Part shown: in pieces, positions 1,556 through 36,584 of the stretch
Numbering within the stretch: the first letter of the stretch is position 1
Layout of the letters: every line of letters starts with the position of its first letter
Sequence record: SRR31156797_4606
DNA length: 51,587 bases
Strand: one strand, 5' to 3'
The notes under the pieces: generated by a model
Database searches by the model: none
What the model was told of the DNA's origin: nothing
What the model saw: only the letters and a program-made list of their open reading frames with translations
Position numbers and translations under genes: made by a program

Positions 1556-1564
1556 AGACTCTAC

Positions 1565-17660: not shown

Positions 17661-17756
17661 AAGAGATCCTTTAATTATTACCCAAAAGGCCTCTTTCCCC
17701 AAAAAAAGCCAACAATAGTTGTACACACCCTAAATATTTTCAATGTGGAGGAATGT

Positions 17757-18842: not shown

Positions 18843-18882
18843 TGGCGTCGTAAAAAAGTAGGCCGACGGTCTCGTATTCTTT

Positions 18883-18915
18883 GACAGGCGAACATGATTC
18901 ACATGTTCGCCTGTC
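18883..18915 (+). terminator. Intergenic 14-bp perfect stem-loop after the binding-protein gene (partial terminator or mRNA stabiliser)
   Basis: GACAGGCGAACATG-attca-CATGTTCGCCTGTC followed by TCTATTTTT. Confidence 0.65.
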
Positions 18916-18964
18916 TCTATTTTTAGAAACACCCAGCTCCCTCAAGAGGTAAAAACAATACACT

Positions 18965-19837
18965 GTGTACTATTTACAGTTACTTATAAACGGTATTGTC
19001 GCGGGGGGGGTCTACGCCCTTTTTGCGGTAGGGCTGACGATGATTTATTCCATCTTCAGGTTCATCAACTTTGCCCATGGAGAGTTGATTGCCTGGGGCG
19101 CATACGGAGTCCTGCTTTTTGCTTCCGCACCCTTTCATCTGCCGTTATGGGGGGCTGTTGTGCCTGCAGTTCTACTGGTTATCGTCCTTGCTCAGCTGCA
19201 AAACAAGTTGGTCTTTGGCCCGCTGAAAAATGCTCAACCGGTTACTCTGCTTATTGCCTCCATAGGTTTGTCATTTTTATTGCGGGGTGCTCTGCAGCTC
19301 TATTTTGGTTCAGATTTGCGCTCCTATACAACTGTGTTTTACGAAAGCATTGAGATTGCCGGTATATTTATAACCTATGTCCAGATGGGGATGGTGGCAC
19401 TATCGCTCCTGTTTTTCGTGCTTCTCTATCTGCTGCTCACCAAAACCCTGATTGGCAAATCCATGCGTGCCGTTTCTGACTCTATTGAGCTTGCCGGCAT
19501 TTACGGTATATCAACCAAAAAGGTGAGTATCTTTGTCTGGAGTGTCTCTGCTGTCTTTGCCGCTTCCGGGGGGTTTCTTTTAGCCCTTGATACCAACCTG
19601 GATCCAATGATGGGACTTGCCTTCATGATCAAAGCTTTTGCAGCTGTCCTGCTCGGCGGGGTCGGCAATGTGTGGGGCGCCCTTTTAGGTGGCCTCTGCA
19701 TTGGTATTATAGAAAATATGGGAACCGCATTTATTTCTCCTGGCTATAAAGACTTAAGTGCCTTTGTGCTCATCATTTTGGTCCTGCTCTTGCGGCCCCA
19801 AGGTATACTAGGGGCTGCAACAAAGGGAGTACGCTAA
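18965..19837 (+). CDS. livH: LivH-like ABC permease
   Basis: YALFAVGLTMIY...INFAHGE; KAFAAVLLGGVG. Confidence 0.85.
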   Translation: MYYLQLLINGIVAGGVYALFAVGLTMIYSIFRFINFAHGELIAWGAYGVLLFASAPFHLPLWGAVVPAVLLVIVLAQLQNKLVFGPLKNAQPVTLLIASIGLSFLLRGALQLYFGSDLRSYTTVFYESIEIAGIFITYVQMGMVALSLLFFVLLYLLLTKTLIGKSMRAVSDSIELAGIYGISTKKVSIFVWSVSAVFAASGGFLLALDTNLDPMMGLAFMIKAFAAVLLGGVGNVWGALLGGLCIGIIENMGTAFISPGYKDLSAFVLIILVLLLRPQGILGAATKGVR

Positions 19838-20715
19838 TGGAATACGGGCTGCACATATTGATACTCTGTCTTATTTATATTCTTTTTTCCTCTTCCCTTA
19901 ACCTAGAACTCGGCTACGCAGGGCTCTACAACTTCGGCCATGTTGGCTTTTTTGCGATTGGAGCCTACAGCTCTGCCCTGGTTACGGTTGCAGGTTTCCC
20001 CATATGGGGGGGACTGCTGCTGAGTATGGTGGTTGCCGCGATGGTGGGCCTGATGTTTGCGTGGCCTGTACTGCGGCTCACTGGCGATTATTTTGGGATA
20101 GCCTCGCTGGCTTTTGCGGAGATGATTCGCCTGCTCCTGCTCAATGAACGATGGTTGACTCGCGGCCCCATGGGCATTCCCGGTATCCCAAGAATAGAGA
20201 TAATGGGATTATCCGGCAACCTGGCTACTCTTGTCGTTACTTTGGTTCTCACCGCTCTTTCCCTGCTCTGTTTCAAAATCATTCTTTCTTCTCCGTTTGG
20301 CAGAACACTCAAACTTATCAGGGAAGATGAATATGTTGCCCGTGCCTTTGGAAAAAATGTGGTCTCTTTTAAAACCAGAACCATTGCTCTTGGTTCTGCT
20401 TTTGGCGGCCTTGCCGGTGGACTTTGGGCGCATTACATCGGTTACATCAGTCCCAATGACTTTACCCTGCAACTCACCGTACTTGTCCTTTTATGCGTGG
20501 TCTTAGGGGGCAGAGGTACACTGGTCGGTCCGATCCTGGGTTCTCTTTTAGTCGTCTGTGTGGGAGAAGGCTTACGTTTCCTTCCCTTACCTGCATCCAT
20601 GACAGCCGGTGTTGCCCATATCCAAAGTATGCTCTTTGGCCTGGTACTGGTACTGCTCATGCTCCGCAGACCCCAGGGAATAGTAGCTGAATCAAACTTA
20701 CTTCAGGAAACCTGA
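19837..20715 (+). CDS. livM: LivM-like ABC permease
   Basis: GLYNFGHVGFFAIGAY; LRLTGDYFGIASLAFAE; TRGPMGI. Confidence 0.85.
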   Translation: MEYGLHILILCLIYILFSSSLNLELGYAGLYNFGHVGFFAIGAYSSALVTVAGFPIWGGLLLSMVVAAMVGLMFAWPVLRLTGDYFGIASLAFAEMIRLLLLNERWLTRGPMGIPGIPRIEIMGLSGNLATLVVTLVLTALSLLCFKIILSSPFGRTLKLIREDEYVARAFGKNVVSFKTRTIALGSAFGGLAGGLWAHYIGYISPNDFTLQLTVLVLLCVVLGGRGTLVGPILGSLLVVCVGEGLRFLPLPASMTAGVAHIQSMLFGLVLVLLMLRRPQGIVAESNLLQET

Positions 20716-21485
20716 TGCTTGCATTGCATTCTATATCTAAACAGTTCGGCGGCAACCAGGTGTTACAGAATGTAACGATTGACCTGGACGATAACGCACC
20801 GATTACCGGACTTATCGGGCCCAATGGCTCTGGGAAATCAACCCTTTTCAACGTTGTGATGGGCTTTTATTTTCAAGATAAGGGGACTGTCCACTTTAAC
20901 GGCAAACAACTTGATATGCTCCCCCCTGAAAAACGCTGTCACCAGGGCCTTTCCTGTACCTTTCAGGACAGCCGCATGCTTACCTTTATGACTGTAATCG
21001 ATAACCTGACAGCAATCCCAACGCCCCAAGCCGGTGAATCCCTGGTAAAGACTTTTTTTTCTCCTCAACAGGTCCGCCGCGAAGAAAAAGCCATCAAAGA
21101 AAAAGCTTACGAGATTCTAGACCTGCTTCACCTTAGCCGATTGGCCAAGGAACCAGCAGGCAGTCTCAGCTACGGACAGAGAAAATTACTGGAGATCGGC
21201 AGGGTAATGATGACTGATCCCAAACTGGTTCTGCTTGATGAACCCACAGCAGGTATCAACCCGACCCTTATCCAGTCACTGGTGGAAGTGCTACAAACAT
21301 TGGTACAAAGAGGGATGCGCTTTTTTTTGGTTGAACACAACATCCCGCTGGTAAGTCAGCTCTGTGACAGAGTGCTGGTGCTGGATGCAGGTGAACTCAT
21401 CTTTAATGGAACTGCTGAAGCAGCACGAAGGGACAAACAGGTCATACAGGCATATCTTGGGAGCGATGGCTATGTTGACGCTTGA
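20715..21485 (+). CDS. livG: LivG-like ABC ATPase
   Basis: GPNGSGKST; LSYGQRK; LLDEPTAG; VEH; VIQAYLG. Confidence 0.88.
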   Translation: MLALHSISKQFGGNQVLQNVTIDLDDNAPITGLIGPNGSGKSTLFNVVMGFYFQDKGTVHFNGKQLDMLPPEKRCHQGLSCTFQDSRMLTFMTVIDNLTAIPTPQAGESLVKTFFSPQQVRREEKAIKEKAYEILDLLHLSRLAKEPAGSLSYGQRKLLEIGRVMMTDPKLVLLDEPTAGINPTLIQSLVEVLQTLVQRGMRFFLVEHNIPLVSQLCDRVLVLDAGELIFNGTAEAARRDKQVIQAYLGSDGYVDA

Positions 21486-22173
21486 TTCTATTACAGCAGG
21501 ATACGGTGAACTCACTGTCCTGACGGAACTAAACGTCACCTTGAAGAAAGGGGAAACCGTTTGCCTTATTGGCCCAAACGGTGCCGGCAAATCAACGGTC
21601 TTACGGGTTGTGGCCGGTCAGCTGCGCCCGAGTCAGGGCAAGGTTCTGTTTAACGGCCAAAATATCTCAGGGAAAGACTGTTTTGAGAAAATAAAAATGG
21701 GCATTCTCTTTGTGCCCCAAGGACGCAACGTATTTCCCAGCCTCTCCCTCAAGGAAAATCTCAATCTAAGCCAGATTTTCATCTCGGAAGACCTCTTTAG
21801 ACAGCGTATGGAAACAGTCCTGGAAACGTTTCCGTGGATGAAGGACAAACTCGGTGACCCGGCAGGATCACTTTCAGGCGGGTTACGGCAGATGCTTGCA
21901 CTTTCAAGAATTCTGCTCTTATCTCCTCAGTTGGTTTTACTCGACGAACCTTCCCTTGGCCTCTCGCCTTTGATTGTGGATGAAGTTTTTGCTCTTATCT
22001 CGAGCCTCAACCAACAAGGCATTTCTTTTTTGCTAGTGGAACAAAATGCCCGCAAAGGCCTTTCTGTTGCTCACCGGGGTTATGTGCTGGAATCTGGAAA
22101 AAATAGACTGAGCGGCACTGGGCAGCAGCTCCTTAGAGACCCTGAGGTACAAAAACTTTACCTTGGTGGGTAA
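21472..22173 (+). CDS. livF: LivF-like ABC ATPase
   Basis: GPNGAGKST; LSGG; LLDEPSLGLSP; VEQN; LYLGG. Start moved to ATG 21472 (GGGAG RBS). Confidence 0.88.
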   Translation: MLTLDSITAGYGELTVLTELNVTLKKGETVCLIGPNGAGKSTVLRVVAGQLRPSQGKVLFNGQNISGKDCFEKIKMGILFVPQGRNVFPSLSLKENLNLSQIFISEDLFRQRMETVLETFPWMKDKLGDPAGSLSGGLRQMLALSRILLLSPQLVLLDEPSLGLSPLIVDEVFALISSLNQQGISFLLVEQNARKGLSVAHRGYVLESGKNRLSGTGQQLLRDPEVQKLYLGG

Positions 22174-22515: not shown

Positions 22516-22899
22516 TTAGATAAAATTTGAGATTTCATCTATAGCGTCCCTTACTGTGATAGGTTTTGGAAGAAAAGCGTTCATCCCGGCCTTCGCACAT
22601 TGTTCTTGCAGACCACTCCTAGACGCGCCTGAAATACCTATAATGGGCGTGACCGTACGGTGCTGATCTTTCTCACGCTGCCTGATAACTCTAGTGGCTT
22701 CCAACCCATCGGTAAGCGGCATCTCGATATCCATCAAAATTACCCTAAAACTTCCCTGCTCCCACTTAGACACAGCTTCTTGCCCATTTATGGCAAACTC
22801 TGTACGGAACTCATACGTTTCAAGTAAATTTTTCAAGAAAGTACGGATCAACCGGTTATCATCGACAATCAATATAGGATCAGGAGAATTCGTTGCCAT
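22516..22899 (-). CDS. Single-domain response regulator (REC)
   Basis: ILIVDDN; ILMDIEMPLTDG; FLPKP. Confidence 0.88.
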   Translation of the reverse strand: MATNSPDPILIVDDNRLIRTFLKNLLETYEFRTEFAINGQEAVSKWEQGSFRVILMDIEMPLTDGLEATRVIRQREKDQHRTVTPIIGISGASRSGLQEQCAKAGMNAFLPKPITVRDAIDEISNFI

Positions 22900-22958
22900 A
22901 ATAAAACCTCTCTAAAAATGCAGATAACGCTACAAGCGTGCGAGTGTATTTCTTATTA

Positions 22959-22974
22959 TGAAAGAACCATGCCA
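22959..22974 (-). promoter_or_regulatory. Candidate sigma-54 (-24/-12) promoter for the single-domain REC gene
   Basis: Minus strand TGGCATGGTTCTTTCA versus consensus TGGCACG-N4-TTGCW: good -24, imperfect -12; 60 bp upstream of the start. Confidence 0.35.
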
Positions 22975-23203
22975 TCTGTAGTTATAATCCAATATTATAG
23001 AGGTACTGCGAATGAAAGTAAGGCTACGTTTAATTCACACTCAAGAAAGGCCACCTTTTGTTATAAGAGAGGAGAAAGAATTTGAATTCCTCGAATGATA
23101 AAACGTTTGCTTCTCTGTGACGTGCATGATGCAGTTAGGTGCGATTGCAAAGAATGTTGCGCAACTTTTATTTACAGCTGTCAATATTTATTTGCGCCTG
23201 CAC

Positions 23204-24628
23204 TTACTGCTTAGAGATACTATTCCTCTGAATATACTGACCTAAGGCTTGACGGGTTACCCCAAGAAGCTTGGCAGCTAAGGCAATACTGCCATTAGCA
23301 CGCTTTAATGCCTCTATAGACAGCATCTCTCTTGCCTCTTTTATAGTAGGTAAAATTGGCCCAAACGAAATGCTTGGGATTGTATCATCCGTTTCATTTC
23401 CGACCACCACTTTGGGACGAAATTGCCCTTGCATGACCAGACGAATGACATCAACACCAAGGTGTGAACCTTGCTGACGACTGACTGCATTTAAGATAAT
23501 TGCTTGCAATTCTCTAATGTTTCCCGGAAAAGAATGCTTTCTTAGATAAGGATAAATCTGAGGTGTCACGTTAAGCCCCTTCTTTCCAAGTTCACTTGCT
23601 GCTAACTGAAGAAAATGCTCAACCAATAACGGAAGATCATCAAAACGTTCCCGTAAAGGAGGGACTGTTACGTGATGCGTGTTAAGTCGATAATATAAAT
23701 CTTTTCTAAAAGTACCCTGTTCAACAAGATCGTCAAAATTTCTGTTTGTTGCCACAACGATTCTGGCATCGCATGTTCGCACCGCGTCTGACCCTAGGGC
23801 TAGGTACGTTTTTTCTTGCAACAAACGGAGTAATTTCAATTGAGAGGAATAACTTAAATCGCCAATTTCATCTAAGAAAAGGGTCCCACCTTCAGCTTCT
23901 TTTATCTGACCACCCCTGCTTGTATTAGCACCAGTATATGCACCTTTTACGTGTCCAAATAACGTATCAGAAAAAACTTCATCATCTACACCAGCGATAT
24001 TAACGGCAACAAATTTCCCTTTTCTTCCGCTCGCCATATGAATTGACTTGGCAACCAACTCTTTTCCTACACCTGTTTCTCCAGTAACTGCAACCACCTG
24101 ACTACTCAATGCTATGGTTTCTATATATCTAAAGAGAGCTAACATTGTCGTGTTTCTGGTAATCACATCATTGAAATACTCAAAATTAATAGGCTTTTCA
24201 TTTTTATTCTTATATCTCAGTGCTTTATTTTCGCGTCGCAAGTCTCTTAACTCAAGAGCTCCGCTTACCGAAGCAAGTAGCCTATCACTACACAGCGGCT
24301 TCTTTATGTAATCATAGGCCCCCTTCTTCATACACTTGACTACTACCTCCACTGAATCTCTTGCAGTAGCCATAACAATTGGAATTTCTGGAAAAGAAGA
24401 AGTAATCTCTTCAAGTAATTCCTCCCCATTTAAATGGGGCATTGTGATATCGAGTAAAATTAAAGATGCTCCTCCTTGCTTGAGCGTGTTTACGACCTGT
24501 CGACTATCTGAGAGAGAAAGAATATTATTATAGCCATTAATAACGAGAGTTCTCTCAATAGCCTCAGCCACATCCTGCTCGTCATCAACAACAAATATGG
24601 GTAAATCTGGTTGTAGAAATACACTCAA
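23204..24628 (-). CDS. Sigma-54-dependent response regulator (REC-AAA+-HTH, NtrC family)
   Basis: VVDDE; GETGVGKE; LFGHVKGAYTGA; LFLDEIG; FRKDLYYRL; FPGNIREL; C-terminal HTH. Confidence 0.93.
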   Translation of the reverse strand: MSVFLQPDLPIFVVDDEQDVAEAIERTLVINGYNNILSLSDSRQVVNTLKQGGASLILLDITMPHLNGEELLEEITSSFPEIPIVMATARDSVEVVVKCMKKGAYDYIKKPLCSDRLLASVSGALELRDLRRENKALRYKNKNEKPINFEYFNDVITRNTTMLALFRYIETIALSSQVVAVTGETGVGKELVAKSIHMASGRKGKFVAVNIAGVDDEVFSDTLFGHVKGAYTGANTSRGGQIKEAEGGTLFLDEIGDLSYSSQLKLLRLLQEKTYLALGSDAVRTCDARIVVATNRNFDDLVEQGTFRKDLYYRLNTHHVTVPPLRERFDDLPLLVEHFLQLAASELGKKGLNVTPQIYPYLRKHSFPGNIRELQAIILNAVSRQQGSHLGVDVIRLVMQGQFRPKVVVGNETDDTIPSISFGPILPTIKEAREMLSIEALKRANGSIALAAKLLGVTRQALGQYIQRNSISKQ

Positions 24629-26391
24629 ACCATATCCTCCACTGACACTGGAATTAATATTCTAAAAACACTACCAAGTCCCACGCTACTTTCAATCTCA
24701 AGATGATATTTCATTCTTTTTAATATACCATTACTAACCGAGAGCCCAAGCCCTGTCCCTTCACCAACCCTTTTTGTTGTATAAAAAGGTTCTAGACAAC
24801 GGTCTTTGGTAGTTTGATCCATACCAACACCGTTATCTTCAATCTCTAAAACGATAAGCTGACTACAGAGTTTCCTATGGTATTGAGACTGAAACCGAAT
24901 AGCATGTTCATCAGACTGCGACAGAGTTAATGTGACTGAAATTCTTTTACTGAATGTATTATTATTTTCAAAGCGGGCTTCAACAGCATGTCTTGCATTA
25001 GATAAAAGGTTTACAATCACTTGTTCAAATTGAGATTCATCACAGGCAACAACAGGTAATGTATCCCCAACAAGCACCTTAAACTCAATACCATTTTGCC
25101 TAAACTGCTCCTGAAAAAATACAATTGCATTCTCAAGGGGTTCTCTAAGGCATATTTTTTTTAATTTACCGGTAGGACCATGTGAAAAAGATCGTAGCCT
25201 CTCAACCAAAAGAGTTATTTTACCTACTTGTTTTTTTATGTTTCCCAAAATGCCTGATATAAAATGATCAGGAGAATTCGCCTCCAGATACTTTAACGCA
25301 TTTTCTGTATCTAAATTAATCACCGATAGTGGCTGATGAATCTCGTGCCCCATTCCAGAGGCCATCTCACCCAAAGCAGTGAGTCTACTCGAATGAGCTG
25401 CTTGTTCCTGCTGTAGAGTAAGCTCCTTTTCTAATTCTTCTTTCGCAATAGCTGTACCGATTAAAGTAGCAGAGGTTGTTAAGGCGTCAAGTTCGGGTTT
25501 GGACCACTCACGCTCGTTCCTGCAGTCCATAAACCCAAGAAATCCCCAAGTATCATTATCTACAGAAATAGGCATAAAGGCCAGTGACTTAATGCCAAAG
25601 CTGCTGAGCCAACGAGCTATATCACTATTAAAATCAATTGCATTGCCGCTTATATGTTCCAGCTGCAAAAAATATTGTAACCAGGCACTAACTGGCACTT
25701 CTTGATATATAAAATCTGGCAACACTTGATCTGGCAAACATTCGTGACTCCACCCAAAGAGCTGTCGCGCTTCTCGTTTTCCAGCAGAGTCGAAATGATG
25801 TTTAAAAACTTGCACCCTGCAGAGAGCTAAAGCAACACCGAGACGACCTACTAATTCTTCAGTGTGTGTTTCCCAGTCGTTCTTCAGCAGTAATTTTACT
25901 GCCATATCCGAAACTTCAGCCAGGACCAGATCCCTCCTCACCAATTTGGCTTCAAGTTGTTTCCGCTGGTATATATCTGTTTCAAGTTTTTTGATTAATT
26001 GATGATTTTGGACTCTTAGTAAATATTTTTCTTCAGCTCTTTTGAAAAGCTGTACTAAATCACGTTCTTCCCAGGGTTTGAGAACATACTGATAAATATT
26101 TCCTTTATTTATGGAGTCGATAATATCATCAGTATCCGTATAGGCCGTTAAGATAATCCTTACAACATCTTCATTTTGCTCCTTAATAGCTTCTAACAAT
26201 TCGACCCCAGACAACCCAGGCATACGCTGATCAGCAATGACTATTGCTATATTGGGGTTATCGTGAAAGAGTACAAGTCCTTCTTCACCTGATTTCGCCG
26301 TAATAACTTCATATTGCCTTTTAAAAGCAATTTGAAAATTGGTAAGGTTTGCTTGCTCATCATCGACGTACAAGATTTTAAATTTTGACAA
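24625..26391 (-). CDS. Cytoplasmic hybrid kinase (REC-GAF-HisKA-HATPase)
   Basis: ILYVDDE...ADQRMP; GAF-like WGFLGFMDC; GMGHEIHQPL; NLLSNA; PFYTTK...GTGLGL. TTG start with AAGGAG RBS. Confidence 0.9.
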   Translation of the reverse strand: MSKFKILYVDDEQANLTNFQIAFKRQYEVITAKSGEEGLVLFHDNPNIAIVIADQRMPGLSGVELLEAIKEQNEDVVRIILTAYTDTDDIIDSINKGNIYQYVLKPWEERDLVQLFKRAEEKYLLRVQNHQLIKKLETDIYQRKQLEAKLVRRDLVLAEVSDMAVKLLLKNDWETHTEELVGRLGVALALCRVQVFKHHFDSAGKREARQLFGWSHECLPDQVLPDFIYQEVPVSAWLQYFLQLEHISGNAIDFNSDIARWLSSFGIKSLAFMPISVDNDTWGFLGFMDCRNEREWSKPELDALTTSATLIGTAIAKEELEKELTLQQEQAAHSSRLTALGEMASGMGHEIHQPLSVINLDTENALKYLEANSPDHFISGILGNIKKQVGKITLLVERLRSFSHGPTGKLKKICLREPLENAIVFFQEQFRQNGIEFKVLVGDTLPVVACDESQFEQVIVNLLSNARHAVEARFENNNTFSKRISVTLTLSQSDEHAIRFQSQYHRKLCSQLIVLEIEDNGVGMDQTTKDRCLEPFYTTKRVGEGTGLGLSVSNGILKRMKYHLEIESSVGLGSVFRILIPVSVEDMV

Positions 26392-26476
26392 TTGTCACTC
26401 CTTTGATATGCCCAAGGATCTCTATCATTTGATTGCACCGCACCGAATTCTTCACCAACTGGCTATTAATGGTATG

Positions 26477-28216
26477 TTAAGGAGATTGAACAGGAAGAAT
26501 TATTTCAAAAGTTGCCCCTTTTCCTTGTTCACTGTGAACCTTTATATCACCACCTTGCTGCTTCACTATTGAGTAAGAAATACCCAGCCCAAGACCGGTC
26601 CCTTGCCCGACTTCTTTTGTTGTAAAAAAAAGATCGAATACCTTTTGTTTATCTTTTTCAGAAATACCAGAACCCGTGTCTGAAAAGAAAAGGTGAACAC
26701 TCTCATCGCGGCACTCAGTCGCAATGGTTATACTTCCTTTACCCTTTATTGCCTGGACAGCATTTTGTAGAATATTAAAAACTACCTGACTCATCCGTTC
26801 AGGCAGGCACTGCACAAGCGGTAACCCACCATATTCACGATGTACGATGACCTGTTGGAGTGATTCTTTATCCATAAAACCAATGGTAGTATTTATAAGA
26901 TTATGCAAATCCACAAAAACGTATTTTTCAGAACTTACTCTTGAGAATGTCCTCAAATCACTGACAATACGAGTAGTCCTCCTAATGCCTTCATCAACAT
27001 TTGCAAGTAACTGATCGATGGTTGGAAAAAGTTCATCAAAATAGATCTCCCCTTTAACAGCTTTGACCTCATTAACCCTCTTGTGCACTTCTTCGATAGT
27101 ATTCACCAGATCGAATTTATCGTAATAGCTGCATAACTCTTTGATCTCATCAAAAGAACGATGAAGCGATGGTAAAGCACTAGAGACAAAATTTATTGTA
27201 TTATTCATTTCATGGGCCACACCAGCAACTAACCGCCCCATGGCAGCAAGCTTTTCCTGTTGGATTAGCTGCTCCTGAGTATTCTGTAGATCAGTTAATG
27301 TCGTTGCCAACTCTGTATTAGTTTGTTTCAGTTTTACTTGTTCACTAAACAACTCCTGATTGACCTCGTTAAGCTGATGTGTGCGCTCTAAAACTTTCTT
27401 TTCTAAACTTTCATTCAATGATTCTATTCTCTCAAAAGAATAGGCCAAGGCATGAAATAGTTCATCATAGGTATCTTTCAAAAGTTCTATATCGCTAGGT
27501 CCTTCTGAGTTTGGTCTTTTCCTTTTTATCCTGGACAGCAAATCCTGCAACTGCCGAGTAAAAATGTGAATAACCACAACAATCAATAAGACATACACTG
27601 CTAAATATATGCTCGCAAAAAAACCGGTTTGAATAAGGATAGTGCTTATACTATCTCTATAACTATCTTTTGAAAAATGAACCGTGACGTACCCAACAAT
27701 TTCTTTATCTAATTTGTTTTGCGATGTTTCGACATACCACGTATCTTCGATATCCTTCTCTGCCTGAAAAAAAACTTGCCCACCGTACAAAAAAAAGTCT
27801 TCTGTTTCTTGAATAAAAATCTCACTTCCTCTTGTGTCATTAAGAATTCTCTGCAACGAAGGTTCACTCAAAGTAAACGACGTTTTGTGAGGGCCATTTT
27901 GGGTTTCCTGAAAGAGAAGCTTTTTATTTTTATTCCATATTGTTACTGCAACAATGTTCTGCTGAAGCATCAGCCCTTGTACGGGTATTACCATCTCATC
28001 AATATTCTCTATAAATATCGGAACCCGGATGGTATGAGCCAGCATTCTCACTAGACTTTTCCCCTGGAGATCTAAAGAAGACACATATGCTTTTTTCTGT
28101 ATATTTATCAGATAGAAATCCAAACACAGCACGATGACAGCCATGGGTACCACCAGGGTTACAATCATCCTGGCGCGGAAACTCTTAGGCAATGCAAGCC
28201 ATTTGCTAATCACCAC
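26477..28216 (-). CDS. Membrane sensor histidine kinase (NtrB-like) with periplasmic domain
   Basis: Two TM segments flanking a periplasmic region; coiled coil; GVAHEMNN; NILQNA; FFTTKEVGQGTGLGL. Confidence 0.9.
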   Translation of the reverse strand: MVISKWLALPKSFRARMIVTLVVPMAVIVLCLDFYLINIQKKAYVSSLDLQGKSLVRMLAHTIRVPIFIENIDEMVIPVQGLMLQQNIVAVTIWNKNKKLLFQETQNGPHKTSFTLSEPSLQRILNDTRGSEIFIQETEDFFLYGGQVFFQAEKDIEDTWYVETSQNKLDKEIVGYVTVHFSKDSYRDSISTILIQTGFFASIYLAVYVLLIVVVIHIFTRQLQDLLSRIKRKRPNSEGPSDIELLKDTYDELFHALAYSFERIESLNESLEKKVLERTHQLNEVNQELFSEQVKLKQTNTELATTLTDLQNTQEQLIQQEKLAAMGRLVAGVAHEMNNTINFVSSALPSLHRSFDEIKELCSYYDKFDLVNTIEEVHKRVNEVKAVKGEIYFDELFPTIDQLLANVDEGIRRTTRIVSDLRTFSRVSSEKYVFVDLHNLINTTIGFMDKESLQQVIVHREYGGLPLVQCLPERMSQVVFNILQNAVQAIKGKGSITIATECRDESVHLFFSDTGSGISEKDKQKVFDLFFTTKEVGQGTGLGLGISYSIVKQQGGDIKVHSEQGKGATFEIILPVQSP

Positions 28217-29126
28217 GTTCTCCGTCAGATGTTATTGAGACATCAAGCTTTTCAATCATCTTATAGTTAAGAATTGTTTTCACCTGTGGGGTAACAACCT
28301 TTCCTTGCGTTACTTTATTAAGCTGATATTGAGAGAGTATTTCTATCGCTAACAATGCTGCCCCCTGAGCTACCTGATCAATATCAAATGTTATGGCGAG
28401 AGTTGCCCCATGATTGACCAACTTTTCTGAAAAGGTGAGCAACGGGACTTTATTACTGATGGAAAACTGAAGATACGATTGAAGAGTCTTTTGGTTGGTA
28501 ACTGTAATGTCGGGCAACATCCAAAGCAGATCAATCTTGCCACGTAAAGATCGTATTACCCCTTGAACATCACGACTCTTATGCGCAGCAAGAAACGTAA
28601 ACTCCACCTCTGAATCAATACGCGACAAACTCTCAATAAAGCCAGCGCTATGAAGTGGATCATAGACAAGACCAATCCTGCTTACCTCCGGCAATCGACG
28701 TCGAATTTCCTTTAATTGCTCCAAAGGCGATGGAATCAAACCAATCCCGCTAACCAAAGGACGAGCACCAACTATTTTTTCAGGTGAAATAACTAAGAGG
28801 TGAACAATGGGTAAGTCTGGCACAGTCAAAGCTGCTTTGAGTGCTCGTGTGCCTAGAGCCAAGATAAGGTCAGGCCGCGTGAATTGTATCTGCTGGGGAA
28901 TTTTTTTTATATTTTCCCCTGAAACAATGATTTCTTGTATCTGATGGGGCTGGATCCTTTTAAATCCAGAGCTAGGAGAAAAACGACTAAAAGCTTGAAT
29001 AAACTCCTTCTGAATGTGGTCGTTCAGAGTATTTTGGCTGCCTTTGAGTATAACAATCTCATTACCCGACACAATATCTGCCAGGACAAAAAAAATAATG
29101 AGGAAAAAAGCAACCAACCTTTTCAT
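28206..29126 (-). CDS. Periplasmic ABC_sub_bind-type substrate-binding protein with no neighbouring permease
   Basis: Signal peptide; PDLILALG; RIGLVYDP; DLLWMLPD; VNHGATLAI. Overlaps the kinase start by 11 bp. Confidence 0.8.
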   Translation of the reverse strand: MKRLVAFFLIIFFVLADIVSGNEIVILKGSQNTLNDHIQKEFIQAFSRFSPSSGFKRIQPHQIQEIIVSGENIKKIPQQIQFTRPDLILALGTRALKAALTVPDLPIVHLLVISPEKIVGARPLVSGIGLIPSPLEQLKEIRRRLPEVSRIGLVYDPLHSAGFIESLSRIDSEVEFTFLAAHKSRDVQGVIRSLRGKIDLLWMLPDITVTNQKTLQSYLQFSISNKVPLLTFSEKLVNHGATLAITFDIDQVAQGAALLAIEILSQYQLNKVTQGKVVTPQVKTILNYKMIEKLDVSITSDGERGD

Positions 29127-29323
29127 AAAAAGTGACTATTTATTGCATACATTGAACAGAACAATACAAAATACGCGTCAACAAAAGTTGACACTTCTAT
29201 TATCCATCTATACAAACCTGATTAATCTTGCAAAAAGCTTAAATATTAGACAGTAAGATGGTGACCTTGTACACTCGGTTACTCTTTGTAACCGGATTCA
29301 GTCAATTATAATATACAGATAAT

Positions 29324-31240
29324 ATGAAAGAAGCATGCCAAACCACATGTAAAATTTTATTATGGGTAGTTATCATTACAGATGGGGTTGCCTGGGCAGC
29401 ATCAGAAAAAGCTCGAGAGGAAGAACTACTTTCATTATATTTTGATGAGAAACAACTCGTTGAAGCATCAACCCATTCCCTTAAGCCGATTAATTATGTT
29501 GCCGAAAACGTAACTATTGTCACACAAAAAGAAATCGAAGCCATGCATGCTCATACCCTGGCAGACGTTCTCAAACGTCAATCGGGTGTATTTACACATT
29601 ATTTTGGCCAAGATTATTTTGGCGATGCAAGCATATTATTACAAGGCTCCCAAAGGCATCATGTTTTATTTTTGCTTGACGGGGTACGTTTAAATCAAAA
29701 TTCCAGTGGCTTTGCTGTTACCAACTTCATTCCACTGGGTATAATCAAACGAATTGAAATTATAAAAGGGGCAGCCTCCTCCACCTGGGGCTCTGCTCTT
29801 GGTGGCGTTGTTAATATTATTACCAAAGAGACTGGCGATACCCCCAAACCAACCGGACAAGTCAATGCGAGTTATGCTGAATCAAACAGCTACGATTTGA
29901 GTGCTGACAGTGCCGGCAAGATTGAGCGACTTAGCTACTATCTCTATGGCGGCAAGTTAAATTCAGATGGCTTGGCAGTCGATAGGTATGCCACGCGTGA
30001 CGCCCTATACGGTAAACTCCAATTCCAACTTACCCCAAAATCTCAACTGTCTTTTAGCGGTGGATACAGTGATCCTTTTTACAAGGGATTAAACTGGCAA
30101 AATGCCTGGGACATTGACCAACTTAATATCTATGAAGACATAGATCAGAAAAATATATGGGGCACCCTCTCCCTTGATACCGAAATATACAAAAACACGT
30201 CTCTTCATCTTGCTTTCCAACATTTTGACACCACCCATAACATCAATAGATATTCCCTTGGCAGTGGAGTTGGCGGGGGACAGGGAACTCTGATCTATGG
30301 ACAAGAATGGCAAGATGAATCGACTAATTTTACCAGCAGAGTCTCCTGGGCAGGAGAATCAATCACCACCAATATTGGCTTTGAAATAAATCAAAGCGAA
30401 ATGGTTTATGTAAATCGCTTAGGAGCGTTTTTTGATGGCCCAACAGCCACCACAGATCCACCAGTTTCAGAAGATAGATATGGTATCTATGGCAACTTCA
30501 CGTATGTGAATGGTGACCTCTCACTTACCCCAGGAATACGATACGATGACCATTCTAACTCTGAAGAATCAGTAAGCCCATCACTTGGTGCAACGTATCA
30601 AGTCACCCCTGATACTCTTTTCCGGGCCATGGTCGCCAAAGGTTTTTCAGCACCTTATTTGAAAGCTTCTTCCCATTCTCCAGGCCTCAAACCAGAAAAG
30701 TTATGGACGTTTCAGGCTGGAGTTGAAACAGCAATCATTCCTGCCATACATTTTAAAGGAACACTCTTTCAGCATAACATTGATGATGCTTGGGAACTCG
30801 TTGATCCATGGACAAATACCGGATCATCACAACTCAATGGTTTTGAAATAGAAGCAATAACGCGTGAATTTTATGGGCTCAGCTTAACAGGCAACTTTAC
30901 CTTTACCTCCTATGATAGAGACGAAACTGAAAATAGCGCCTCTAGTGATGATGAAACCTACACAGGCAATGCCATCTTCTCCTATCAAATCCCCACCTTG
31001 GGCTTAAGAGCAGAACTTGCCGGTCATTACTACTGGATAAGTGATGAGTTACAAAACGAATTACCTGTACATGGAACTTTTTTGTGGGACCTCTTGATCG
31101 CTAAAAATTTTGAATATGCTGAATTGAGTGGTAAATTGTATATCAAAGGATATAATATTTTTAATGAGTCACAATATTTTGATTATGAATATCCTAATCC
31201 TGACCGATGGGTGGAAATAGGTATTACCCTAAAGTATTGA
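29324..31240 (+). CDS. TonB-dependent receptor
   Basis: Signal peptide; VLFLLDGVRLN; IKRIEIIKGAASSTWGSALGGVVNIITK; C-terminal YNIFN...GITLKY. Confidence 0.9.
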   Translation: MKEACQTTCKILLWVVIITDGVAWAASEKAREEELLSLYFDEKQLVEASTHSLKPINYVAENVTIVTQKEIEAMHAHTLADVLKRQSGVFTHYFGQDYFGDASILLQGSQRHHVLFLLDGVRLNQNSSGFAVTNFIPLGIIKRIEIIKGAASSTWGSALGGVVNIITKETGDTPKPTGQVNASYAESNSYDLSADSAGKIERLSYYLYGGKLNSDGLAVDRYATRDALYGKLQFQLTPKSQLSFSGGYSDPFYKGLNWQNAWDIDQLNIYEDIDQKNIWGTLSLDTEIYKNTSLHLAFQHFDTTHNINRYSLGSGVGGGQGTLIYGQEWQDESTNFTSRVSWAGESITTNIGFEINQSEMVYVNRLGAFFDGPTATTDPPVSEDRYGIYGNFTYVNGDLSLTPGIRYDDHSNSEESVSPSLGATYQVTPDTLFRAMVAKGFSAPYLKASSHSPGLKPEKLWTFQAGVETAIIPAIHFKGTLFQHNIDDAWELVDPWTNTGSSQLNGFEIEAITREFYGLSLTGNFTFTSYDRDETENSASSDDETYTGNAIFSYQIPTLGLRAELAGHYYWISDELQNELPVHGTFLWDLLIAKNFEYAELSGKLYIKGYNIFNESQYFDYEYPNPDRWVEIGITLKY

Positions 31241-31303
31241 TCGTTCTTGATTTTTCTTCTCAGAACATTGGGCTCAGTTAAAAAAACTTTCATGGAGACA
31301 AGG

Positions 31304-31402
31304 ATGAAAAAAAAACTGGTTGTTCTCACCAAGGGAAAAAACGTTAAAAAAGTAGCAACCACTGGCGGTTGTTGTTCTGGTGTTCCATCAGGCTCAAAGT
31401 AA
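31304..31402 (+). CDS. 32-aa RiPP precursor peptide (geopeptide-like): MKKKLVVLTKGKNVKKVATTGGCCSGVPSGSK
   Basis: Below the ORF-track cutoff; translated by hand. GGAG RBS at 31294-31297, ATG 31304, TAA 31400-31402. Basic leader and a Cys-Cys core; directly upstream of a radical SAM/SPASM gene. An in-frame ATG also exists at 31292. Confidence 0.85.
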   Translation: MKKKLVVLTKGKNVKKVATTGGCCSGVPSGSK

Positions 31403-31420
31403 TCGAGCCAATAAATAATT

Positions 31421-31448
31421 GGAAGGAGAGCCTCTGCTCTCCTTTCTT
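31421..31448 (+). terminator. Stem-loop between precursor peptide and maturase
   Basis: AAGGAGAGC-ctct-GCTCTCCTT followed by TCTTATATATTT. Confidence 0.65.
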
Positions 31449-31465
31449 ATATATTTCTCTTCTAT

Positions 31466-32767
31466 ATGTATTTCTCCAACTATCTCATTTCATTTAAGTA
31501 TTCGTCAATTCACGACCACACAGTCCTTTTTTCGACTAAAACAGGTGCACTTATTCTACTGCCTGATGATGATTTTGGAGCACTTCAAAACGGTGCATTC
31601 AATAACGAATATACAGAAGATCTCACTGAGCTAGGATTTCTGGTGAAGAGTCAAGCAAAAGAGAAAGAAGAAGTACAAAGCTACATGGAGGACATCAATC
31701 ACCATAACCCAAATCTTACAGTTGCCCTTGTTTTGGGAATGGAATGTAACTTCCGCTGCTCCTACTGCTTCGAAGGTCAGCAAAAAGGCAAGAGGGGCAT
31801 GACCGATGAAACAGCCGACCAAGTCATTGACTTTATCAAAAATACGTTCAATGAAAACAAGAAAAAACTGGTCCTACAAATATATGGCGGTGAACCGCTG
31901 CTCTACACGAATCGTATAATTTATTTGGCAAAACAGTTAAAGCCATATGTAGAACAACGTAGAGCAGAGTTGGTTATTGACCTTATTACTAATGGCTCCC
32001 TCTTAACCCCTCAGGTTGTCGATGAATTAAATAAATGGGGTTTAGATGGGGTAAAAATCACCATTGATGGCCCTCCTGATAATCATAATGCATTTAGACC
32101 GTTTAAGTCCGGCGCCCCGACCTTTGACGTTATAATTAACAATATTAAAAACATCTGCACCAAAACCAAGGTCCGTTTAGGTGGAAATTACACAAACGAA
32201 ACATATCAGGACTTTGTAACAGTCCTTGATCATCTCAATGAAAAGGGCATCACTGCTGACAAAATTGAGCAAGTCCATTTTAATATCGTCATGCGGGTGA
32301 ATGATGCGATCACAAGCAATGAATATGCAGGGGGGTGCGCGACTATTAACGAGCCCTGGCTAAAAGAGGCATCCCTTCATGTCAGAAAAGAAGTCCTGAA
32401 ACGAGGGTATCCAATCGCAGACATATCTCCCGAGCCTTGTGCCGTTGAAATCAATGATGCCTATACCGTCCACTACGATGGAAGCCTTTATAAATGTGTC
32501 ACCTGGGTTGGACATGAACAGTATAAGATTGGGGATGTATGGAGCGGGGTAACAACAGCATTTGAAAAATCGCATCACATTTACCACTGGCAGCACACAG
32601 AAAAATGCAAGGAGTGTATTTATCTTCCCCTCTGCTTTGGTGGTTGCCGGTACATGGCGTATCAAAGAGATGGACATATGGGGAATGTCGACTGCAGAAA
32701 GCCCTATCTTGACGCGACCCTTAAAAGTTTATTAAAACAAGACCTCTGTTACAAATATGACCTGTAG
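31466..32767 (+). CDS. Radical SAM/SPASM peptide maturase (geopeptide maturase-like)
   Basis: CNFRCSYC (CxxxCxxC); YGGEPLL; ITNG; ITIDG; SPASM cysteines CAVE...GSLYKC...CKECIYLPLCFGGC...DC; about 80-aa N-terminal extension that could be an RRE. Confidence 0.92.
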   Translation: MYFSNYLISFKYSSIHDHTVLFSTKTGALILLPDDDFGALQNGAFNNEYTEDLTELGFLVKSQAKEKEEVQSYMEDINHHNPNLTVALVLGMECNFRCSYCFEGQQKGKRGMTDETADQVIDFIKNTFNENKKKLVLQIYGGEPLLYTNRIIYLAKQLKPYVEQRRAELVIDLITNGSLLTPQVVDELNKWGLDGVKITIDGPPDNHNAFRPFKSGAPTFDVIINNIKNICTKTKVRLGGNYTNETYQDFVTVLDHLNEKGITADKIEQVHFNIVMRVNDAITSNEYAGGCATINEPWLKEASLHVRKEVLKRGYPIADISPEPCAVEINDAYTVHYDGSLYKCVTWVGHEQYKIGDVWSGVTTAFEKSHHIYHWQHTEKCKECIYLPLCFGGCRYMAYQRDGHMGNVDCRKPYLDATLKSLLKQDLCYKYDL

Positions 32768-33446: not shown

Positions 33447-34667
33447 ATGCCTGAAATAACGGTCAAAAATTTATATAAAATATTTGGTAACTCACCCAAC
33501 AAAGCTCTTACGTTGCTCAAGCAAGGGCAGAGCAAAGAAGAAATATACGAATCAACCGGATTAACCGTCGGAGTTCAAAACGCTAGCTTCGAAGTCGAAA
33601 AAGGTGAAATCTTTGTTGTGATGGGTTTGTCCGGATCAGGAAAATCAACCCTGGTTCGAACATTGAACAGATTAATCGAACCCAGCGCCGGAGAAGTTAT
33701 CATAGATGGAAAAGACATTCTAAAAATGGATAAACAGGAACTTGTCAAGTTCAGAAGAAGTAAGACAAGCATGGTTTTCCAATCCTTTGCACTTATGCCT
33801 CACTTGACAGTTCTCCAGAATGTAGCATTTGGACTTGAGCTAGATGGTATAGAAAAATCTGTACGCAATGAACGTGCCCTTGATGCGCTTAAACAGGTTG
33901 GACTTGAAGGCTGGGAAGGTGCCTACCCTTCTGAACTAAGTGGTGGAATGCAGCAACGAGTTGGCTTGGCTCGAGGCCTTGCCGTTGACCCCGACATCCT
34001 TCTCATGGACGAAGCCTTTTCGGCATTAGATCCACTCATCCGTACTGAAATGCAGGATGAGTTGCTCAAGCTCCAGGACCGGCAGGAACGGACAATCGTC
34101 TTTATATCACATGATCTTGACGAGGCTCTTCGCATCGGTGATCGAATTGCAATCATGGAAGGAGGAAGAGTTGTTCAGGTTGGCACCCCAGAAGAAATTT
34201 TACAGCATCCAGCAGATGATTATGTCCGTGCATTTTTCCGGGGTGTTGATCCTACAGGTGTTATTCTAGCTGGGGATATCGTTCGTCATAACCAGCCAAC
34301 GGTTATATGGCACACCCCTCAAGGCAGCCCTCGCGCAACGCTGGAGATGTTAAATAATCAGGACAGAGAATATGCTTATGTACTGGATTCTGAACACCGT
34401 TTTTACGGGGTTGTCTCAACCGACTCTCTGCGCTCACTTCTAGAAGCTCCCCCCACTGATGAAAAAAAGAGAATCGAAGATGCCTTTATTAAGGAAGCGC
34501 TGGTTGTAAAAGATAGTGAATGTCTTCAAGATATTCTCCCCCAGGTAGCCTCTCATACATGGCCAATTCCCGTGGTTGATGAAAATTCAGTCTACAAAGG
34601 GGTTGTATCTAAGAACAGGTTCCTTAAAACGCTTTATAGATCAGAACAAAATGACACCCTTATTTAA
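33447..34667 (+). CDS. proV: Glycine betaine/proline ABC transporter ATPase with CBS domains
   Basis: GLSGSGKST; LSGGMQQRVGLAR; DEAFSALDPLIRTEMQDEL; C-terminal CBS pair. Confidence 0.93.
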   Translation: MPEITVKNLYKIFGNSPNKALTLLKQGQSKEEIYESTGLTVGVQNASFEVEKGEIFVVMGLSGSGKSTLVRTLNRLIEPSAGEVIIDGKDILKMDKQELVKFRRSKTSMVFQSFALMPHLTVLQNVAFGLELDGIEKSVRNERALDALKQVGLEGWEGAYPSELSGGMQQRVGLARGLAVDPDILLMDEAFSALDPLIRTEMQDELLKLQDRQERTIVFISHDLDEALRIGDRIAIMEGGRVVQVGTPEEILQHPADDYVRAFFRGVDPTGVILAGDIVRHNQPTVIWHTPQGSPRATLEMLNNQDREYAYVLDSEHRFYGVVSTDSLRSLLEAPPTDEKKRIEDAFIKEALVVKDSECLQDILPQVASHTWPIPVVDENSVYKGVVSKNRFLKTLYRSEQNDTLI

Positions 34668-34696
34668 CACTTTTTTTTTCCACTCTCCTGGAGATC

Positions 34697-35539
34697 ATGA
34701 TGTTTACATTTGAAGAAAAGCTCATTCCACTGGACAATTGGATATCCTTATTCATTGATTGGCTGGTTGAAGGGTATCGATGGTTTTTCCAGGGCGTTAA
34801 ATGGCCTGTGGAAATTACGCTATCCGGTTTGGAAAATGGACTTCTAGCCATACCGCCACTTGTTGTTATAGGCGTAATGGCTCTTATTGCCTGGAAAACG
34901 TCTGGAATCAGGTTGTCTATTTTTACGGTAGCAGCCCTGGTATTTATTGGATTGCTAGGCTTTTGGGAGGACACCATGATAACACTTGCCATGGTTTTTT
35001 CCTCAGTAGTCTTTTGTATTATCGTCGGAATCCCTTTAGGAATATGCGCCGGAAGAAACGACAAGTTTGAATCCTTTATGCGACCAATGCTAGATGGAAT
35101 GCAGACTACACCCGCGTTCGTTTACCTTGTTCCCATTGTCATGCTTTTCTCCATAGGAAATGTAGCAGGGGTTCTGGCCACCATTGTTTTTTCCCTTCCC
35201 CCTATTGTTCGTTTGACCGCGCTAGGTATTAGACAGGTTCACCCGGAACTTGTTGAAGCGGCATTGGCTTTCGGTGCAACCGGTAATCAGGTCCTCTTAA
35301 AAGTGCAGATTCCATTGGCAATGCCTACAATTATGGCTGGGCTAAACCAAACCATAATGATGGCACTTTCCATGGTGGTAATTGCAGCCTTAATTGGGGC
35401 AGGTGGGCTTGGGGCGCCTGTTGTCCGTGGGTTAAACACCCTTGACATCGGACTGGCTACCATTGGTGGCCTTTCAATTGTATTGATAGCCATAATTTTA
35501 GATAGAATAACCCAGTCTCTGGGATCAAAAACAAATTAA
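34697..35539 (+). CDS. proW: Glycine betaine/proline ABC permease
   Basis: MQTTPAFVYLVP; RLTALGIRQV; AGLNQTIMMALSMVVIA. Confidence 0.93.
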   Translation: MMFTFEEKLIPLDNWISLFIDWLVEGYRWFFQGVKWPVEITLSGLENGLLAIPPLVVIGVMALIAWKTSGIRLSIFTVAALVFIGLLGFWEDTMITLAMVFSSVVFCIIVGIPLGICAGRNDKFESFMRPMLDGMQTTPAFVYLVPIVMLFSIGNVAGVLATIVFSLPPIVRLTALGIRQVHPELVEAALAFGATGNQVLLKVQIPLAMPTIMAGLNQTIMMALSMVVIAALIGAGGLGAPVVRGLNTLDIGLATIGGLSIVLIAIILDRITQSLGSKTN

Positions 35540-35555
35540 AAAAGGAGAACAAGAC

Positions 35556-36584
35556 ATGCTAAAAAAAGTATTATTGAGTGCGGTAATTGCGTCAATGACG
35601 TTTGTAGGTTCGTCATATGCAGAGAGCACACAACCCGGCAAAGGTATAACGTTGAGACCTGCCAGAGCAACATGGAACACAGGCTTTTTTCAAGAGGCAC
35701 TAGTGCGTCGGGGCATGGAAGAACTTGGTTACAAGGTTAAAAACGCCAAAGATCTTGCCAATCCAATATTTTACAAGTCTGTTGCCCTTGGTGATCTTGA
35801 TTACTGGACCAATGGTTGGTTTCCCATGCACGATGCCCAATTGCCAAAACAGTTCTATGATAAGGCTGAAAAAGTCGGCTATGTCGCAAAAGCTGGGGGT
35901 CTGCAAGGTTATCTCGTCTCCAAAAAACATGTTGACGAGTTTGGCATTAAATCTCTTGATGATTTTAAACGTGATGAGGTTAAAAAGGCATTCGATAAAA
36001 ACAATGATGGAAAAGCTGATCTTACAGCCTGCCCTCCTGGTTGGGGATGCGAGCAGGTTATTGCTCATCACATGAAGGTCTATGACCTTGATAAACACAT
36101 CAATCCCGTTAAAGCGTCTTATGAAGCTGGAATGGCAGCAACCCTTGCCGAATACAAGGACGGAGAACCTGCTTTTTTCTATACTTGGGCACCAAACTGG
36201 ACAATATTTAAACTGCAGCCTGGCAAAGATGTAATGTGGATTAATGTGCCCGAAACCATGCCTACTGAAGCGCAGATGGCTGGCAAAGACAGGATGGAAA
36301 TAAGTGGTATTGAAGGCGCTGTTTCTGATCCCGTAAAGCTCGGCTTTGTTGTTTCAGATATACAGATTGTTGCCAATACAAAATTTTTGGAAAAAAATCC
36401 AGCAGCTAAGAAATTTTTGGAAGTTTTCACCCTGCCCCTTAACGATATTAATGAACAAAATACGCGGATGAATGAAGGTGAAAAGAGCCAAAAAGATATT
36501 AACCGCCATGCGGATGAATGGATTGCTAAAAATCAAGAAAAATGGAATGGTTGGCTTGATGCAGCGAGAAATGCTGCAAAATAA
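35556..36584 (+). CDS. proX: Glycine betaine/proline ABC substrate-binding protein
   Basis: Signal peptide; KADLTACPPGWGCE; YTWAPNW. Confidence 0.92.
   Translation: MLKKVLLSAVIASMTFVGSSYAESTQPGKGITLRPARATWNTGFFQEALVRRGMEELGYKVKNAKDLANPIFYKSVALGDLDYWTNGWFPMHDAQLPKQFYDKAEKVGYVAKAGGLQGYLVSKKHVDEFGIKSLDDFKRDEVKKAFDKNNDGKADLTACPPGWGCEQVIAHHMKVYDLDKHINPVKASYEAGMAATLAEYKDGEPAFFYTWAPNWTIFKLQPGKDVMWINVPETMPTEAQMAGKDRMEISGIEGAVSDPVKLGFVVSDIQIVANTKFLEKNPAAKKFLEVFTLPLNDINEQNTRMNEGEKSQKDINRHADEWIAKNQEKWNGWLDAARNAAK

Follow-up and report, generated by a model that had tools for sequence, protein, structure and literature searches.

The 51,587-nucleotide (nt) stretch of DNA analysed here (sequence record SRR31156797_4606; in the following, "the window" denotes this whole stretch) harbours at positions 22516-32767 a block of genes that joins a short cysteine-containing precursor peptide and its radical S-adenosylmethionine (SAM) maturase, i.e. 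a cassette for a peptide that is synthesized ribosomally and modified post-translationally (RiPP), to a TonB-dependent receptor (TBDR), an orphan periplasmic binding protein and a membrane histidine kinase. In related genomes, these five gene families are found together again, in differing orders, an arrangement far beyond chance. The initial annotation had read the block as a candidate peptide-sensing circuit; its observation is confirmed and its interpretation in part supported, the module being real and conserved. The model favoured here, for which the chances stand about even, is that a geopeptide-type RiPP cassette is joined to its own uptake-and-sensing module, forming a loop in which the peptide would be made, released, re-imported and sensed. 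The following features were identified in the block, the supporting evidence being given in brackets.

22516-22899, minus strand: lone REC protein, a single-domain response regulator (Pfam Response_reg, 87.6 bits)
22959-22974, minus strand: sigma-54-like promoter TGGCATGGTTCTTTCA, preceding the REC start by about 60 nt (-12 element TTTC for TTGC)
23204-24628, minus strand: NtrC-type sigma-54 activator with REC, Sigma54_activat, AAA lid and HTH_8 domains (Pfam and NCBIfam profiles)
24625-26391, minus strand: soluble hybrid kinase REC-GAF-HisKA-HATPase, without transmembrane (TM) segment (Pfam and hydropathy)
26477-28216, minus strand: membrane histidine kinase HisKA-HATPase (Pfam), with TM segments at about residues 17-40 and 196-220 and a periplasmic stretch at about residues 41-195 (hydropathy)
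28206-29126, minus strand: orphan periplasmic binding protein of the ABC_sub_bind family (Pfam PF04392, 61 bits against a cut-off of 25.9)
29325-29340, minus strand: candidate second copy of the sigma-54-like motif, TGGCATGCTTCTTTCA, overlapping the TBDR start codon on the opposite strand
29324-31240, plus strand: TBDR of 638 amino acids with Plug domain and 22-strand-type barrel (Pfam)
31304-31402, plus strand: 32-amino-acid precursor peptide MKKKLVVLTKGKNVKKVATTGGCCSGVPSGSK (open reading frame (ORF), position and conserved motifs)
31421-31446, plus strand: terminator or attenuator hairpin with 11-bp stem and T-rich tail, between peptide and maturase
31466-32767, plus strand: radical SAM/SPASM maturase (TIGR04280)

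Every ORF is located where the initial annotation had placed it and carries the domains named there, and the 197-bp intergenic region described between the two divergent arms corresponds to positions 29127-29323. Likewise, the peptide and the radical SAM/SPASM enzyme had rightly been recognized as a RiPP pair, as evident from the TIGR04280 score and the conserved Cys-Cys precursor. The maturase reaches 462.5 bits (E 1.4e-138) against the NCBIfam model TIGR04280, "geopeptide radical SAM maturase" (cut-off 400), in an end-to-end alignment of residues 1-429 of 433 with model positions 1-427 of 428. TIGR04280 is a "hypothetical equivalog" model, i.e. a computationally defined family, with TIGR04229 as companion peptide family. 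The radical SAM motif CNFRCSYC (CxxxCxxC) occupies residues 94-101, the C-terminal part contains cysteines at positions 325, 344, 381, 384, 390, 394 and 410, and a SPASM domain is indicated by a TIGR04085 match (55.9 bits, cut-off 27). Scores for the characterised thioether families stay below the respective cut-offs (CefB, 201 against 600; PapB, 148.8 against 340; SCIFF, 110.6 against 425), and TIGR04463, also among the next-best families, falls far under its own. The nearest solved relative is 5WGG (E 1.2e-17), a SCIFF thioether maturase.

The precursor ORF stops 63 nt ahead of the maturase start and consists of a leader with a VVLxKG motif, an invariant Cys23-Cys24 pair and a core of the form CC-x7-K. 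An alignment of 33 peptides encoded directly upstream of related maturases revealed M1, C23 and C24 as invariant columns and a leader motif hydrophobic-V-L-x-x-G, the glycine of which (G11) is at least 90% conserved. In 24 of these peptides a Lys or Arg follows exactly eight residues past Cys-Cys, often at or near the C-terminus, and from this spacing the core looks like a unit of about ten residues, CC-x7-(K/R). By analogy to the nearest characterised enzymes, the Cys-Cys pair would be modified, most likely to thioether cross-links. The TIGR04229 model (22 positions, cut-off 30) does not match the window peptide up to E 10 and recognizes only three of ten related peptides, weakly (9.8-16.7 bits); the model is narrow. 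The homology of the peptide to geopeptides rests on its position, the common leader motif and the invariant CC. Peptide, maturase and binding protein are each without an exact entry in a collection of 15 billion proteins.

Downstream of the peptide, the hairpin at 31421-31446 folds at -21 kcal/mol (z -3.9), a stability attained by none of 200 shuffles, and no terminator-like site was found between TBDR and peptide. This arrangement suggests a single TBDR-peptide-maturase transcript with damped read-through into the maturase gene.

The closest contigs in a species-representative collection belong to three Candidatus Electrothrix assemblies (Desulfobulbaceae, Thermodesulfobacteriota), the maturases of which are 70% identical to that of the window; the initially suspected origin from Desulfobacterota agrees with this placement. 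Maturases above the TIGR04280 cut-off were detected in 26 of 401 genomes sampled from Thermodesulfobacteriota, at 30 places. Among 1.84 billion cluster representatives, 621 matched the maturase at E <=1e-30, and 31 of the 150 matches listed did so at E <=1e-70; judged from these counts, the family proper is of modest size. For each of the 30 places, a neighbourhood of up to 20 kb was compared, homologues being assigned by BLAST and ambiguous neighbours by Pfam. A TBDR adjoins the maturase at 28 places, the two misses falling on short contigs (L029, 2.8 kb; L031, 4.1 kb). A Cys-Cys peptide is encoded upstream of the maturase at 27 places (missing at L029, L031 and the truncated contig L058), a homologue of the binding protein is present in the locus at 25 (four misses at contig ends and one real absence, L067), and a histidine kinase lies beside the binding protein at 22 (missing at L047, L067 and otherwise at contig ends). 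The co-occurrence that the initial annotation had suggested looking for across Desulfobacterota is thus found, and peptide/maturase pairs that usually lack the TBDR and kinase arm, named there as the contrary outcome, are not what the 30 places display.

All-against-all clustering of 563 neighbourhood ORFs yielded four conserved protein families, namely maturase, TBDR, kinase and binding protein, and no others; an exporter, peptidase, permease or ATPase conserved among these ORFs was not detected. As initially noted for the block, the binding protein is an orphan without cognate permease, and this applies to every locus examined. Four gene orders were observed. In the first, that of the window, binding protein and kinase diverge from TBDR-peptide-maturase; in the second, TBDR-binding protein-kinase and peptide-maturase face away from each other; in the third, all genes are colinear; and in the fourth, binding protein and kinase follow downstream of the maturase. 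Since the order varies in this way, the genes appear to be kept together by function rather than by inherited order. Four genomes contain two cassettes each, with TBDRs 33-53% and binding proteins 23-49% identical between copies, and when all cassettes are compared in pairs, the identities of the four proteins (maturase, TBDR, binding protein and kinase) co-vary, with Spearman coefficients of 0.50-0.69 (shared ancestry uncorrected). Duplicate cassettes and co-variation fit private receptor sets that would have diverged along with their cassettes.

Several loci deviate from the common layout. In genome G170, two full geopeptide cassettes with differing peptides are arranged in tandem about 6.6 kb apart (L045, 6219-18682), one with a hybrid kinase, the other with a plain kinase and an NtrC-type activator. 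Maturases of 693-735 amino acids with a C-terminal extension of about 290 residues lacking a Pfam match are encoded at L054 (5019-7100), L055 (9358-11538) and L029 (579-2786), and cluster representatives of 723 and 737 amino acids are also among the maturase matches listed. Unlike every other locus, L060 of genome G025 has two small genes (11070-11890; 125 and 134 amino acids, no Pfam match) between peptide and maturase, about 1.6 kb apart from the usual neighbours. On a Candidatus Electrothrix aarhusensis contig (L003, 4939-6674), the membrane-kinase orthologue comes as two ORFs (4939-6213 and 6270-6674), owing to a broken gene or to an error in assembly.

The proteins of the proposed receptor arm were characterized by domain content, hydropathy and structural relatives. 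The TBDR has no Pfam match to an N-terminal signalling domain, and its nearest solved relatives are the metal-chelate and cobalamin receptors Cir, BtuB, PfeA, CntO and FoxA. The binding protein starts with an N-terminal signal-like segment (hydropathy), has 3LKV and 6HNI as nearest solved structures, and is encoded by a gene the stop of which overlaps the membrane-kinase start by 11 nt. Assignment to ABC_sub_bind by Pfam pertains to the binding protein of the window, the homologues elsewhere being assigned by similarity to it. In the membrane kinase, two TM segments predicted from hydropathy bracket a periplasmic stretch of about 155 amino acids. A complex predicted for residues 22-306 of the binding protein and residues 41-195 of the kinase, run without supplied alignments, scored 0.16 against a mark of 0.34. 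In four genomes (G037, G097, G060 and G227, at loci L093, L098, L101 and L104, respectively), an ABC_sub_bind homologue is located directly beside a distant TBDR.

A sister clade of maturases scoring 280-312 bits against TIGR04280 is represented by eight loci (L004 and L068-L074). In seven of them the maturase is accompanied by a protein of about 500 amino acids from one cluster, the one member scanned being an SBP_bac_5 protein (260 bits). This protein adjoins a kinase in five loci, the three kinases scanned having dCache_1, HAMP and HisKA domains; a TBDR homologue occurs in four loci and Cys-Cys peptides of the same pattern in three. No permease family is conserved around the SBP_bac_5 protein. 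That an unrelated binding-protein family fills the same slot argues that the task of this slot is periplasmic ligand capture for a sensor.

The remaining genes of the divergent arm, i.e. hybrid kinase, NtrC-type activator and lone REC protein, had initially been counted among the parts of the circuit. The full arm including the membrane kinase is kept in order and orientation in genomes G164 (membrane kinase 52%, hybrid kinase 55%, activator 62% and REC protein 57% identical) and G224 (33, 48, 57 and 45%, respectively) alone. In the Electrothrix genome G001 (L001, L106), the membrane kinase is followed by a shorter REC-HisKA_3-HATPase protein and then by a dehydratase gene, and neither L001 nor L003 contains an NtrC-type match. 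Elsewhere, the partners comprise hybrid kinases with C-terminal REC domain, an NtrC-type gene beside the kinase (L043, L045) and a short REC-containing protein (L064). Being limited to two relatives, the activator arm is a lineage-specific output and not part of the core module.

The activator contains Sigma54_activat (188.3 bits), REC (89.8 bits) and HTH_8 (23.1 bits) domains and the Walker A motif GETGVGK, and reaches the cut-off of no named NCBIfam equivalog (top score, AtoC, 324.9 against 714; LuxO, 292.7 against 800). Its sigma-54 contact loop reads GAYTGA, those of the orthologues in G164 and G224 GAFSGA and GAFTGA, respectively. From domain composition and this GAFTGA-type loop, it is assigned as an NtrC-class sigma-54 enhancer-binding response regulator. 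Upstream of the orthologous REC genes, three otherwise unalignable regions have the sigma-54-like motif (T/C)GGCA(T/C)G(A/G)TT(C/T)TTTCA in common. Besides the window, the motif (GGCAYGRTTYTTTCA) is found at L105 (9954-9968) and L062 (19359-19373) and in no other of 107 loci; the degenerate 15-mer is expected 0.03 times per window at <=1 mismatch. The lone REC protein is likely a sigma-54-driven output or a phosphate sink of the relay. The GAYTGA loop was considered as cause of the odd -12 element and rejected, as orthologues with the same promoter motif carry GAFSGA or GAFTGA.

A further copy of the motif with one mismatch, at 29325-29340, is oriented toward the binding-protein/kinase operon, the start of which lies about 200 nt downstream. 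As this copy is missing at the equivalent place in G164 and G224, it counts as a candidate only. Scanning for the canonical sigma-54 site TGGCAC-N5-TTGC at <=2 mismatches gave 58 matches against 54 expected and is uninformative alone, and the divergent promoter region is too diverged from that of three relatives for a footprint reading. Among relatives, 6 of 32 loci have a sigma-54-like site that agrees with at least 9 of 12 consensus positions in the 250 nt before the peptide, compared with 4.2% of 2000 control windows. In these six loci (L043, L044, L047, L051, L052 and L057) the site precedes the peptide start by 57-121 nt (57-86 nt in five), and L043 combines it with an NtrC-type gene beside the kinase.

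Of the peptide-sensing loop put forward in the initial annotation, the conserved RiPP pair with TBDR, binding protein and kinase has held. The sigma-54 link to the peptide operon is not visible in the window, where the single sigma-54-like promoter that is conserved belongs to the lone REC gene.

Within 22516-32767, genes for an ATP-binding cassette (ABC) permease or ATPase are absent, as initially reported. Two ABC systems flank the block just outside, a Liv-type system (17745-22173) and ProVWX (33447-36584), each with its own binding protein and neither kept in related loci. The Liv-type system was rejected as partner of the orphan binding protein on account of its own Peripla_BP_6 protein and its lack of conservation with the module. 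The statement that no exporter or leader peptidase is encoded in the window likewise holds for every ORF scanned; peptidases of types M20 (16542-17660) and M24 (38003-38767) do occur there, but are no conserved companions of the module. No Rfam family reaches the gathering score anywhere in the window, which provides no indication of a riboswitch before the TBDR. At 2-3631 on the minus strand, a second trio of TBDR (1565-3631), periplasmic YfiR/HmsC-like DUF4154 protein (1013-1555) and CHASE8-HAMP-HisKA kinase (2-1009, clipped by the window edge) is encoded. By analogy, it resembles a circuit of the YfiBNR type, the outer-membrane slot being taken by a TBDR and the output by a kinase. Positions 47605-49656 encode an ordinary NrfH/NrfA-like nitrite reductase pair, namely a NapC/NirT-type cytochrome and, after it, a cytochrome c552 (568 bits with Pfam Cytochrom_C552).

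According to the favoured model, the N-terminal domain of the maturase would bind the peptide leader, and the enzyme would modify the core around the two cysteines, most likely introducing thioether cross-links as do its nearest characterised relatives. The product of about ten residues would be released by factors encoded outside the cassette and, being too large for porins, would return to the periplasm through its cognate TBDR. There, the binding protein may capture it and dock on the periplasmic domain of the kinase. In the lineage of the window, the signal would pass on to the REC-GAF hybrid kinase and the NtrC-type activator, which may then fire the sigma-54-like promoter before the lone REC gene and possibly one before its own operon. 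That the peptide itself is the ligand imported and sensed is what we infer from this gene content. What is conserved downstream is sensing instead of import into the cytoplasm, and for this reason an autoinducer-like signal is slightly favoured over metal scavenging.

Several observations weigh against this loop. Release of the peptide is unproven, as no locus encodes an exporter, a leader peptidase or a signal peptide. No sigma-54-type site was found on the plus strand of 29127-29323 or upstream of the peptide in the window; with none preceding TBDR or peptide, feedback onto peptide production is not visible there. Two loci deviate in gene content, L067 with a prismane-family gene after the TBDR and neither binding protein nor kinase, and L047 with an aconitase in the kinase position and no kinase. 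The co-variation of identities, uncorrected for shared ancestry as it is, also counts on this side. Solved ABC_sub_bind proteins hold single aromatic amino acids, not peptides (PMC10443332, Table 1). Moreover, TBDR and ABC_sub_bind pairs are found in genomes without an over-cut-off maturase at five of the 30 best binding-protein loci (L079, L093, L098, L101 and L104). The receptor arm would therefore be a more general device, the ligand of which need not be a geopeptide.

Rather unlikely, in our estimation, is a chalkophore-like metallophore, where the Cys-Cys peptide would bind, outside the cell, a soft metal in short supply, the TBDR would retrieve the complex, and binding protein and kinase would report its arrival for induction. 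Enterobactin with PfeA/PfeS/PfeR provides an analogue of metallophore uptake by receptor plus sensor. The two adjacent cysteines are the sole invariant core residues, the TBDR has its closest solved relatives among receptors for metal chelates and cobalamin, and the sister clade employs an SBP_bac_5 protein, from the family of peptide and nickel binders to which MbnE belongs. The carriers appear to be anaerobes of sulfidic habitats, in which soft metals would be scarce, and methanobactin operons, in which transporter (TonB-dependent) and signalling pair are coupled with the precursor of a RiPP, offer a precedent (PMC3621798). A metallophore would, however, call for delivery of the metal to the cytoplasm, and neither an inner-membrane importer nor a metal enzyme or metal transporter is conserved nearby; thioether formation, if it proceeds as in the nearest relatives, would furthermore consume the thiols.

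Less probable still is a receptor arm that takes up and senses some exogenous compound unrelated to the peptide, its only effect on the RiPP being to switch on production; the RiPP itself would have a role elsewhere, e.g. as antimicrobial or as intracellular cofactor-like molecule. The TBDR and ABC_sub_bind pairs without maturase agree with this, as do the amino-acid ligands of solved ABC_sub_bind proteins (PMC10443332), the missing exporter gene, and the sigma-54-like sites directly upstream of the peptide gene in some relatives, which are expected if the arm controls production. An unrelated ligand is at odds, however, with the near-obligate linkage of the TBDR to peptide and maturase (28 of 30 places), its apparent co-transcription with the peptide in the window, the private and diverged receptor set of each duplicate cassette, and the swap of the binding-protein family under unchanged architecture. 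All four are easier to explain if the specificity of the receptors follows the peptide.

Very improbable, finally, is a TBDR acting as surface sensor instead of transporter, with the ligand altering its periplasmic face such that the binding protein is captured or released and gates the kinase, as in the analogous YfiB/YfiR/YfiN: the second trio at 2-3631 suggests a general design of TBDR, periplasmic protein and sensor, and no permease follows the binding protein, but the TBDR lacks a match to an N-terminal signalling domain, and proteins of the binding-protein fold normally act by binding small ligands.

If the favoured loop is true, a peptide-based sensing loop would be established for anaerobic Gram-negative bacteria, among them Geobacter-like organisms and relatives of cable bacteria, and the widespread trios of TBDR, orphan binding protein and sensor would gain a defined class of ligand. 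The cassette is compact (five core genes) and recurrent across genomes, and its maturase may perform undescribed chemistry on the adjacent Cys-Cys pair. Tentatively, and on the doubtful side, geopeptides could be the first ribosomal-peptide autoinducers of diderm anaerobes, i.e. decapeptides cross-linked by a radical SAM enzyme that would be released, actively returned over the outer membrane through a private TBDR gate and read out in the periplasm by binding protein and kinase. Each cassette would then constitute a channel of communication of its own, and two such channels would exist wherever a genome has two cassettes.

Among known systems, the peptide/maturase pair is assigned, on sequence grounds, to the already catalogued geopeptide family TIGR04280/TIGR04229. 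The window maturase exceeds the family cut-off over its full length and has a Cys-Cys peptide encoded directly upstream; the peptide differs from the family definition by the absence of a TIGR04229 match. A literature search retrieved no publication on geopeptides or TIGR04280 (the wider RiPP, TBDR, kinase and Geobacter literature being judged by title and abstract, supplements aside), in line with the initial remark that no characterised example was known. The thioether maturases of SCIFF (5WGG), the PapB ranthipeptide (NF047865) and CefB (NF038107) resemble the window enzyme in radical SAM core, SPASM domain, an N-terminal region before the core and a Cys-containing substrate next door. The window substrate, in contrast, has just two cysteines, which are adjacent, and its maturase stays under all three family cut-offs.

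Periplasmic binding proteins that act on sensor kinases are known from LuxP/LuxQ/LuxO and TorT/TorS. As in these systems, a transporter-less binding protein is encoded beside a membrane kinase with periplasmic domain, and the relay of the window feeds an NtrC/LuxO-like activator. The window differs by the ABC_sub_bind family, the TBDR in the module and a ribosomal peptide as proposed ligand, and its proteins score far under the cut-offs of the LuxQ and LuxO models (LuxO as given above). A conventional ABC importer differs in that no permease or ATPase family is conserved around binding proteins of the window type. Astexin-type lasso-peptide clusters contain a TBDR and FecIR-like regulators and are read as a release-and-recapture design. 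They share with the window module the combination of RiPP cluster, own TBDR and regulator pair, and differ in RiPP class, enzymes and signalling proteins as well as in the isopeptidase, which is not present in the window module.

The closest described design, by analogy, is the methanobactin operon, which groups a RiPP precursor (MbnA) with an exporter, a TonB-dependent transporter (MbnT) and, in some of its groups, a signalling pair of the FecIRA type (PMC3621798). The window module is distinguished by radical SAM/SPASM chemistry, none of the genes in 22516-32767 having an MbnB/C-type Pfam match, and lacks a counterpart of the MATE exporter MbnM. A link to copper or to any other metal is not seen for the window module. 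Signal perception in the methanobactin case proceeds via an N-terminal extension of the TBDR and an anti-sigma factor/extracytoplasmic function (ECF) sigma factor pair (MbnR/MbnI), in the window via an orphan binding protein and a two-component kinase. Both combine a RiPP precursor with a dedicated TonB-dependent transporter, the gene of which lies directly upstream of the precursor in the window, and with a signalling device for re-uptake.

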